NCBI RefSeq assembly: GCF_057098645.1
Contig: NZ_CM169472.1
Length of the DNA: 64,000 nucleotides
Strand: one strand, 5' to 3'
The position numbers and the translations under genes are program-made. Every line of letters starts with the position of its first letter. The first letter of the stretch is position 1. This document shows positions 36,038 to 40,511 of the stretch, one piece after another. The notes under the pieces are model-generated. The model had not been told where the DNA came from, searched no databases, and worked only from the letters and a program-made list of their open reading frames with translations.

Positions 36038-37075
36038 TTACTTCGCGAGAGTCACTGTGGAGGGAGAGGCTTGCTCGAATCCGCGTTCAAGGATTTCCAG
36101 ATTCGTAAGAACTTCAGATTCCTTGACGTAATTTGGCGCACCGTGGGTGATGGTTTGATACAACGCATCATAAACGCGCCCGTAATCGCCCATCTCCGGC
36201 TTCATCTCTTCTCTGACCGTCACGCCCTCGTCATTGACATACTCCAGCACACCGACCGAATCATCCGCTGCGAATCCCGGTTCGCCCGGCATAATATTAG
36301 CCTTCAGGCTGGTTTCCTGCTGGTCGATACCGTATTTAATAAACGAACCTTTCTTACCGTGAACGATAAATTTCGGATAATCGATTTTCACCAGATGGCT
36401 GGTTTTGACGATGGCTTTCAGGTCGCCATAAAACAGTTGCGCTTCAAAGGTGTCGTCAGGATTGGCTTTATTACGCAGGCTGCGGATGTCATAAGCGACG
36501 TGATCCGGGCGACCGAACAGAGAAATAATCTGGTCCATCGTATGCACACCAAGGCCATAGAACGCGCCATCCTGCGGCAGCCCAGGTTTGGTTTCTGCCA
36601 CCGGGCGGTAATAGTCAAAATGGCTTTCCACTTCAACAATCTCTCCCAGCTTACCGCTTTCAATCGCTTTTTTCGCCGTCAGGAAGCAGGAATCAAAGCG
36701 ACGATTCTGATACGGCGTGACGGTCAGCCCTTTGCTTTTCGCCAGTGCAAACAGCTCCTTCGCCTGGGCAAGCGTCGGGGTGAACGGTTTTTCGACCAGC
36801 ACATTTTTCCCGGCTTCCAGCGCGCGTTTCGCGTACTCGAAATGGCTGTCCGCGTGGGTGCAGACAACAACCAGCTTAACATCGGGATCGTTTAGCACTT
36901 CGTCGAGATCGCTGGTGAAATGGATATGAGAGTAAATGGGAGCCTGTTCTTCCGGCTTCGCATGGCGACGAAAAATATGCGCGACATGCCAGCTATCCTT
37001 GCGGTTAAGTACATACGGCAGATGGTAACGGGTGGTGCTTTTGCCGAAGCCAATAAAGGCGCAGTTGATGACCAT
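36038..37075 (-). CDS. yhhX: Gfo/Idh/MocA-family oxidoreductase
   Basis: 345 aa ORF with N-terminal Rossmann motif (NCAFIGFGKSTTRYHLPY). Confidence 0.9.
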   Translation of the reverse strand: MVINCAFIGFGKSTTRYHLPYVLNRKDSWHVAHIFRRHAKPEEQAPIYSHIHFTSDLDEVLNDPDVKLVVVCTHADSHFEYAKRALEAGKNVLVEKPFTPTLAQAKELFALAKSKGLTVTPYQNRRFDSCFLTAKKAIESGKLGEIVEVESHFDYYRPVAETKPGLPQDGAFYGLGVHTMDQIISLFGRPDHVAYDIRSLRNKANPDDTFEAQLFYGDLKAIVKTSHLVKIDYPKFIVHGKKGSFIKYGIDQQETSLKANIMPGEPGFAADDSVGVLEYVNDEGVTVREEMKPEMGDYGRVYDALYQTITHGAPNYVKESEVLTNLEILERGFEQASPSTVTLAK

Positions 37076-37191
37076 GATTTCGTCCTTTTTAAGGTGGTTA
37101 TTTACACCTTAGCGCAAAGCGGACGTGGTTCCTACTGGAGTGCGCATAACGAACACAAGCCCCCCCGTGGATAAATTGAGAACGAAAGATC

Positions 37192-37286
37192 AAAAAAAAA
37201 GCCAGCACCCGGCTGGCTAAGTAATACTGGAAGCAATGTGAGCAATGTCGTGCTTTCAGGTTCTCCGCGAGGGTCTTCCTGATCGC
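37192..37286 (-). ncRNA. ryhB: RyhB small RNA (Fur-repressed)
   Basis: Minus strand reads GCGATCAGGAAGACCCTCGCGGAGAACCTGAAAGCACGACATTGCTCACATTGCTTCCAGTATTACTTAGCCAGCCGGGTGCTGGC followed by a U-run, i.e. the RyhB sequence with its intrinsic terminator. Confidence 0.95.
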
Positions 37287-37288
37287 GA

Positions 37289-37315
37289 GACAATAATAAT
37301 CATTCTCATTCGCAC
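37289..37315 (-). promoter_or_regulatory. Fur box in the ryhB promoter
   Basis: CAATAATAATCATTCTCATT directly upstream of the RyhB 5' end resembles the GATAATGATAATCATTATC Fur consensus. Confidence 0.7.
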
Positions 37316-37407
37316 TTGTCCAACACTTTTTGCAAAAAAATGCATTTGACTCGCATTTGAAAGTCAATGATGTTGAAAGGGACATTTACCCCAAAGAGGA
37401 CAAAGGA

Positions 37408-37896
37408 ATGAGTGAGATAGTAATACGCCACGCAGAAACACGGGATTACGAGGCCATTCGGCAGATTCACGCCCAGCCAGAGGTGTATTACAACACGCTA
37501 CAGGTGCCTCATCCTTCCGATCATATGTGGCAGGAGCGACTCGCCGATCGTCCCGGCATCAAACAGTTAGTTGCCTGTATTGATGGAACCGTCGTGGGTC
37601 ACCTCACCATTGACGTGCAACAGCGCCCACGCCGCAGTCATGTTGCCGATTTTGGTATCTGTGTCGACTCCCGTTGGAAGAATCGCGGCGTCGCCAGCGC
37701 CCTTATGCGAGAGATGATTGAAATGTGCGACAACTGGTTGCGGGTAGATCGTATCGAGCTAACGGTGTTCGTCGATAACGCGCCAGCAATTAAGGTCTAT
37801 AAAAAATACGGCTTTGAAATTGAAGGGACTGGTAAGAAGTACGCATTGCGTAATGGTGAATATGTCGATGCGTATTATATGGCGCGGGTGAAGTAA
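37408..37896 (+). CDS. yhhY: GNAT-family N-acetyltransferase
   Basis: Start placed at MSEIVIRHAETRDYEAI (162 aa) with AAAGAGGA upstream; GNAT fold. Confidence 0.9.
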   Translation: MSEIVIRHAETRDYEAIRQIHAQPEVYYNTLQVPHPSDHMWQERLADRPGIKQLVACIDGTVVGHLTIDVQQRPRRSHVADFGICVDSRWKNRGVASALMREMIEMCDNWLRVDRIELTVFVDNAPAIKVYKKYGFEIEGTGKKYALRNGEYVDAYYMARVK

Positions 37897-38878
37897 GATA
37901 GTGCCCTTTTTCTGAGATGGAAAAAGGGTGTCATTCAAAATCGGCATACCTTCCTTTAATGTATTTATTTTCCCAATAAATATATTGAGATTTACCTCAT
38001 AATTACTTCCTAAAGTGTAATATTTTATTTTTTAATATATACGCCTACAATTTCCTGGAGTAAATAAATAAAAATTAACAAGCATAATAGTGCCATTGAT
38101 AAAATAGCATGCCATAAAAGGACTTTTCAGGGATGAGTAATATTGTTTATCTGACAGTAACGGGAGAACAACAAGGAAGCATCTCCGCAGGTTGTGGGAC
38201 TACTTAATCTATAGGTAATCGCTGGCAGAGCGGGCATGAGAATGAAATATTTACATTCTCACTCGCAAATAGCATTACTAATACGGGGCTTGGTTCACAG
38301 TTACAGGGTATAACATTTTGTAAATTAATTGATAAAAGCACTCCATTACTTATTAATTCCATTAACAATAATGAGCAATTATTTATGGAATTTGACTTTT
38401 ATAGAATCAATAGATTTGGCAGATGGGAAAAGTATTATTATATACAACTAAGAGGCGCTTTTTTATCGGCTATTCATCATCAGATCATTGAAAATCAACT
38501 GGATACAGAAACAATAACTGTTAGTTATGAATTTATCCTCTGTCAACATCTTATCGCAAATACCGAGTTCAGCTATTTGGTTGGCACTCCCTGAAAATTA
38601 TAACCGTTTGTTTTTACCAAATTCAAAAAACCAAACAAATAATGGTTTCAAAACGTTAAACAGCAAAGCTGTTGGCAGGCTACTTGCTGCTGGTGGCGTA
38701 TACAATGGGAACATTGAAGGTTTCAGAGATACTGCGGAAAAACTGGGTGGAGATGCAATCAAAGGCTATGATCAAATACTAAATGAAAAAACAGCGGGCA
38801 TAGCGATAGCAACAGCATCTATTCTTTTAACAAAGCGTTCTAAAGTTGATACATATACAGAAATAAATAGTTACTTAG

Positions 38879-40074
<1,196 letters not shown>

Positions 40075-40511
40075 TTAGGCAAACTTAGAGGTCAACAAAA
40101 ACTTCTTGATGGCATAGACATAATAGAAATAAAATACATTAAGAGACCTTCAAAAGACTTAGCTAACTTACGAAAGGAGTTTAACAAAACTGTAAGAAAA
40201 AATTTTCTTATCAAACTTGCAAAAACCTCCGAAGCATCTGGAAGATTCAACGCCGAAGACCTTTTAAGAATGAGAAAGGGCTATGTTCCTCTAAATTATA
40301 ATGTTCACCATAAACTATCTCTAGATGATGGTGGTACTAATGATTTCGAAAATTTAGTATTAATCGAAAACGAACCATATCATAAAGTTTTTACTAACAT
40401 GCAATCACGAATAGCTAAGGGAATATTAGTAGGTGAAAGCAAAATCACTCCCTGGGCCATTCCATCTGGCTCAATTTATCCTCCCATGAAAAATATTATG
40501 GAACCCACAAA

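Follow-up and report, generated by a model that had tools for sequence, protein, structure and literature searches.

The stretch of DNA analysed here (64,000 nucleotides; hereafter, the window) carries the divergent genes yhhX and yhhY, with the small RNA gene ryhB in the gap between them. yhhX (36038..37075, minus strand) encodes a GFO/IDH/MocA-family oxidoreductase of 345 amino acids and lies downstream of ryhB, with which it is co-directional; yhhY (37408..37896, plus strand) encodes a GNAT N-acetyltransferase of 162 amino acids and is divergent from ryhB. The first-pass annotation of this DNA had placed RyhB in the yhhX-yhhY gap, which agrees with these gene boundaries, and had named no strand; the strand of ryhB is minus. 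Its further remark that no open reading frame (ORF) accounts for the interval was a fair one, given that the ORFs there are mechanical and that RefSeq/PGAP annotates nothing at this position in the E. coli genomes sampled.

The yhhX-yhhY gap is 332 nt long. Only positions 37161 and 37163 distinguish it from the gap of E. coli K-12; both lie past the ryhB terminator, in the 116-nt spacer that separates the terminator from the yhhX start codon (37076..37191, minus strand). Together, the two changes turn K-12 GGGAGTG into a homopolymer of seven G residues on the minus strand (37160..37166), which lies inside a weak terminator-like hairpin (37154..37169). This G7 allele is common to O145:H28 strains, to which the whole intergenic region of the window is 100% identical. 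Compared to K-12, yhhX shows 19 nucleotide differences in 1,038 and no amino acid difference, and yhhY shows 25 in 489 and two amino acid differences. The absence of any change in the 139 nt of ryhB and its promoter, set against 2-5% divergence in the flanks, is a pattern compatible with purifying selection acting on both the RNA and the region that controls it.

Farther along the window, downstream of yhhY, a yhhZ/tssD-like pseudogene is the target of an IS5-family insertion. The element (ISKpn26-like, 1196 bp, 38879..40074) is complete; it has a transposase ORF on the minus strand (39026..40006), 16-bp terminal inverted repeats (GGAAGGTGCGAATAAG and CTTGTTCGCACCTTCC), and a 4-bp TTAG target duplication (38875..38878 and 40075..40078). 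O145:H28 genomes that are otherwise identical do not carry it (67% coverage, 100% identity), and the segment 37900..41500 is covered to at least 80% in only 7 of 5,426 complete genomes, at 95-98% identity.

At gathering thresholds, Rfam 15 gave two matches across the window as a whole. The first, to RF00057 (RyhB), is located at 37193..37257 on the minus strand, with a score of 83.1 bits compared to a gathering score of 55 (E 3.6e-14); all model positions are covered (1-67 of 67), and a local scan of 36900..37600 gave the same match with an E value of 3.9e-16. The RF00057 model spans only the 3' two-thirds of RyhB; the bounds of the full gene were taken from a comparison with K-12 MG1655, where the ncRNA gene ryhB (b4451, 95 nt) occupies NC_000913.3 3580922..3581016 on the minus strand, between yhhX (b3440) and yhhY (b3441). 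When the intergenic regions were aligned, positions 37192..37286 (minus strand) of the window were identical to b4451 at 95 of 95 nucleotides, with no differences. On the strength of the RF00057 match and this identity, ryhB is assigned to 37192..37286, its length of 95 nt following the K-12 annotation and its 5' end being G 37286, the same as in K-12. The mature RNA is presumably about 90 nt long, with its 3' end inside the U-tract. The window holds a single ryhB copy, the yhhY-linked orthologue. The first-pass annotation had described RyhB as present and apparently intact and had named, beforehand, a covariance-model search as the check that could refute it. Both parts of the description hold: the region scores well over the curated RyhB threshold, and the gene does not depart from K-12 at any position. 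We are therefore close to certain that the element is an ordinary, intact chromosomal E. coli ryhB gene, encoding the Fur-repressed, iron-sparing small RNA (sRNA).

The second Rfam match belongs to another part of the window. It is to the ES036 (CssrF) sRNA, RF02751, at 16545..16587 on the minus strand, and at 39.3 bits against a threshold of 37.6 (E 2.2e-4) it is barely above the cutoff. It is located just downstream of glpD and ahead of hypothetical genes that are listed in the O145 annotation and absent there in K-12. Around ryhB itself, a permissive Rfam scan of 36900..37600 on both strands did not find a second RNA, the only additional match being a sub-threshold one to PrrF.

A promoter scan of 36900..37600 identified one sigma-70-like site, the ryhB promoter. 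It consists of a −35 hexamer, TGGACA (37317..37322, minus strand), and a −10 hexamer, TATTAT (37293..37298, minus strand), which together match the consensus at 10 of 12 positions across an 18-nt spacer; six or seven bases separate the −10 hexamer from the start at G 37286, which fits the K-12 5' end. A simple scan of this kind may miss weak or non-sigma-70 promoters. For the operator, the 64-kb window was searched with the 19-bp Fur consensus GATAATGATAATCATTATC, allowing up to three mismatches. The search returned a single site, at 37289..37307, which matches the consensus at 16 of 19 positions, where 0.01 sites would be expected by chance; the Fur operator announced in the first-pass annotation is thus indeed there and unique in the window. 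Counted from the start site, the box extends from −3 to −21 and contains the −10 hexamer, a placement that, as read from the sequence, corresponds to the classical geometry of promoter occlusion. The interval originally delimited, 37192..37315, takes in the whole RNA, the start site, the −10 hexamer, and the Fur box, but leaves the −35 hexamer just outside.

The promoter, Fur box, and terminator are all identical to those of K-12. Chen et al. (2007; PMC2189734) described a 25.2-bit cluster of Fur sites at −15 of ryhB (given there as "= yhhX-yhhY") and confirmed Fur binding at the K-12 ryhB site by gel shift; the Fur site of the window is identical in sequence to the one that they shifted. Directly upstream of the −35 hexamer, at −41 to −52, lies a perfect A/T-rich palindrome, TTTTTGCAAAAA (37327..37338), which was read from the sequence and is conserved in the Enterobacteriaceae rows of the orthologue alignment. 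Its position is that of an UP element, and it could serve as one; alternatively, it could be a regulator site shared with the divergent yhhY.

Two parts of the RNA stand out. The first is the conserved single-stranded core, RyhB nucleotides 38-58 (GACAUUGCUCACAUUGCUUCC; 37229..37249, minus strand), which is marked by its conservation among orthologues and by its complementarity to sodB. The gene sodB lies outside the window; its K-12 sequence was used for the pairing test. RyhB nucleotides 38-46 (GACAUUGCU; 37241..37249) form an exact 9-bp complement of sodB AGCAAUGUC at −4 to +5, the start-codon region, and this is reportedly the pairing site published by Vecerek et al. in 2003 and by Geissmann and Touati in 2004. 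An unconstrained RNAduplex calculation with full-length RyhB and the sodB leader yielded a long, nonspecific duplex whose energy was reached by 84 of 1,000 shuffles, and for this reason the full-length duplex energy was dropped as a test of sodB pairing. Only the known seed match to sodB is specific; the core-restricted calculation and the direct 9-bp reading are the meaningful ones.

The second part is a Rho-independent terminator (37192..37218, minus strand), identified by a terminator scan and present as a hairpin in both the minimum free energy (MFE) and the centroid folds. Its 7-bp GC-rich stem, AGCCAGC/GCUGGCU, closes a 5-nt loop (37200..37218) and is followed by a U-tract, with eight more U at 37192..37199 and 8-9 U in all. 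From its sequence, this 3' hairpin with its U tail is predicted to be the Hfq-binding module. Folded as a single sequence, the whole RNA has an MFE of −24.1 kcal/mol and is no more stable than its shuffles (z = −0.67), an uninformative signal, which the long unpaired seed of such an sRNA would lead one to expect. RNAalifold, applied to 16 Enterobacteriaceae orthologues, gave 19 base pairs, none with compensatory changes, and all helices were invariant; these sequences are too conserved for covariation to support a secondary structure here. The 5' helix differs between methods, being UCAGG/CCUGA in the RNAalifold consensus and GCGA/UCGC in the single-sequence MFE fold.

The placement of yhhX downstream of ryhB raises the question of how far transcripts from this promoter extend. 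One reading is that the promoter at 37293..37322 mainly serves a ryhB-yhhX operon, in which RyhB is the 5' product left by processing or termination and an appreciable fraction of transcripts continues into yhhX under iron limitation. The two genes are co-directional and 116 nt apart, the spacer 37076..37191 contains no separate promoter-like site for yhhX in the promoter scan, nor does the rest of 36900..37600 outside the ryhB promoter, and the ryhB-yhhX order is conserved in Enterobacteriaceae. Moreover, frequent read-through of the ryhB terminator has been reported (Morita et al., 2015; PMC4509938), and co-transcription of ryhB and yhhX has already been suggested in print (PMC8896160). Against this, the ryhB terminator is strong by sequence, stress is reported to enhance termination at ryhB (PMC4509938), yhhX promoters that are weak or not sigma-70 dependent could escape a simple scan, and outside Enterobacteriaceae it is yhhY, not yhhX, that adjoins ryhB. 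As an account of what the promoter mainly does, we regard the operon reading as possible but doubtful, and it complements rather than excludes the identification of the element as ryhB. Some transcripts probably do pass the terminator into yhhX, making yhhX iron-responsive. A stronger version holds that the ryhB promoter, by read-through, is the main iron-responsive promoter of yhhX and that the G7 run alters the hairpin at 37154..37169, changing read-through into yhhX in this lineage; we consider this improbable, and the effect of the G7 allele on read-through, taken alone, is pure speculation.

That the interval encodes a small protein, instead of or besides the RNA, has next to nothing in its favor. 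Two frames of the mechanical six-frame list overlap ryhB, one of 95 amino acids (37098..37385, minus strand) and one of 53 amino acids (37132..37293, minus strand). RyhB itself, however, contains no AUG, and the only starts within the RNA are UUG and GUG, none of which is followed by a stop before the 3' end, so no frame is closed. The 95-amino-acid ORF would begin upstream of the mapped promoter and run across the terminator. Orthologues have indels of 1-4 nt, located in the terminator loop and the 5' stem-loop, that would shift the frames while the RNA core remains invariant, and the annotations of K-12, the O145 strain, and the RefSeq genomes sampled all lack a coding sequence at this place. 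The protein-coding reading was rejected on the lack of an AUG, the frame-shifting indels, and the lack of an annotated coding sequence. Still less credible is a ryhB decayed or silenced in this strain through a broken promoter, operator, or seed, an idea prompted by the IS5-family insertion 1.6 kb away and the two spacer single-nucleotide polymorphisms (SNPs), for which we found no supporting evidence and which is already refuted by the K-12 alignment, with no differences from the functional gene over RNA, promoter, and Fur box and with both SNPs downstream of the terminator.

The intergenic region is present in 5,424 of 5,426 complete E. coli genomes, the remaining two lacking it, and the 139 nt comprising ryhB and its promoter are at least 99% identical in 5,413 of the 5,424. 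The region was encountered at 5,429 places in these 5,424 genomes, a few of which have up to three copies. RefSeq/PGAP shows no feature under ryhB in any of 25 sampled E. coli records, and because the interval is left unannotated in the sampled genomes, scans for unexplained intergenic conservation will keep rediscovering ryhB.

Beyond E. coli, the 21-nt core GACATTGCTCACATTGCTTCC was searched in one genome per species and was found in at least 120 loci in Enterobacterales, Vibrionales, Aeromonadales, Orbales, and Moritella, often two per genome. Among the matches listed, 119 loci were usable; in 113 of these, the core has a Fur box (up to five mismatches) no more than 300 nt upstream. The corresponding numbers are 5 of 119 for upstream regions that had been shuffled and 2 of 102 for real-DNA regions taken 600-900 nt upstream. 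tblastn with YhhX and YhhY of the window showed that the order yhhY-ryhB-yhhX also occurs in Escherichia albertii, Citrobacter, Enterobacter, Leclercia, Kluyvera, and others, and that yhhY-ryhB with no adjacent yhhX reaches Serratia, Yersinia, Pantoea, and Mixta. When 25 yhhY-linked orthologues were aligned, the center of the Fur box (ATGAnAATGATTATnATT), the RNA core, the stem of the terminator, and a stretch of eight or more T residues proved invariant, and so did the GCAC and AGT that flank the core and were not part of the search pattern. The loop of the terminator and the 5' stem-loop varied and contained the indels of 1-4 nt.

Many Enterobacterales among the matches listed carry two unlinked RyhB cores. 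Tandem cores, co-directional and separated by about 300-380 nt, were observed in Moritella sp. PE36 (locus L047, 5832..5852 and 6210..6230) and in Salinivibrio sharmensis (locus L064, 11700..11720 and 12006..12026). This arrangement recalls the PrrF1-PrrF2 tandem of Pseudomonas.

Within the Fur regulon, RyhB is the central post-transcriptional arm, and its established mechanism is taken to apply here because the gene and its promoter agree with K-12 at every position. When iron is plentiful, Fe2+-Fur would occupy 37289..37307, over the −10 hexamer and 3 nt from the start, excluding RNA polymerase and keeping ryhB silent. When iron is scarce, Fur would leave the operator, allowing synthesis of an RNA of about 90 nt from G 37286 on the minus strand that would end at the hairpin and U-tract at 37192..37218. 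The 3' module of terminator and U tail would bind Hfq, and the unstructured, invariant core (nucleotides 38-58) would pair with the translation-initiation regions of mRNAs for nonessential iron proteins, such as that of sodB. Pairing would then block ribosome binding and lead to coupled degradation by RNase E, with the result that iron is spared. Fur repression in vivo, Hfq dependence, and RNase E-mediated decay have reportedly been documented in K-12 by Masse and Gottesman in 2002 and in later work. Iron- and Fur-regulated expression and dependence on Hfq and RNase E would accordingly be expected in this strain by analogy with the K-12 gene, whereas the anatomy and integrity of the gene, its identity with K-12, its complementarity to sodB, and the conservation of core, Fur box, and synteny were observed directly. 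This copy of ryhB is already known in all respects and adds no new information; the value of the analysis is in annotation completeness only, and the interval can be closed as explained.

Among known systems, PrrF1 and PrrF2 of Pseudomonas are functional analogues, being Fur-repressed sRNAs that downregulate mRNAs of iron proteins. The window element scores only 21.3 bits against the PrrF model (RF00444), compared to a gathering score of 90 (E 0.37); it is not homologous by the model, and PrrF membership was rejected. The RyhB paralogues and orthologues of other bacteria, including Salmonella RyhB-1 and RyhB-2, Klebsiella ryhB-2, and Vibrio RyhB, resemble it in the invariant core GCACGACAUUGCUCACAUUGCUUCCAGU, in having a Fur box upstream, and in their AGCCAGC-type terminator; their 5' parts differ in sequence and length. 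Copy number differs as well, in that many species have two unlinked copies and some have tandem copies, while the window has a single one. With E. coli K-12 RyhB (b4451), the window shares everything that defines the gene, namely, the RNA, promoter, Fur box, terminator, and position between yhhX and yhhY; no difference falls inside the element, and the two SNPs at 37161 and 37163 are confined to the ryhB-yhhX spacer.
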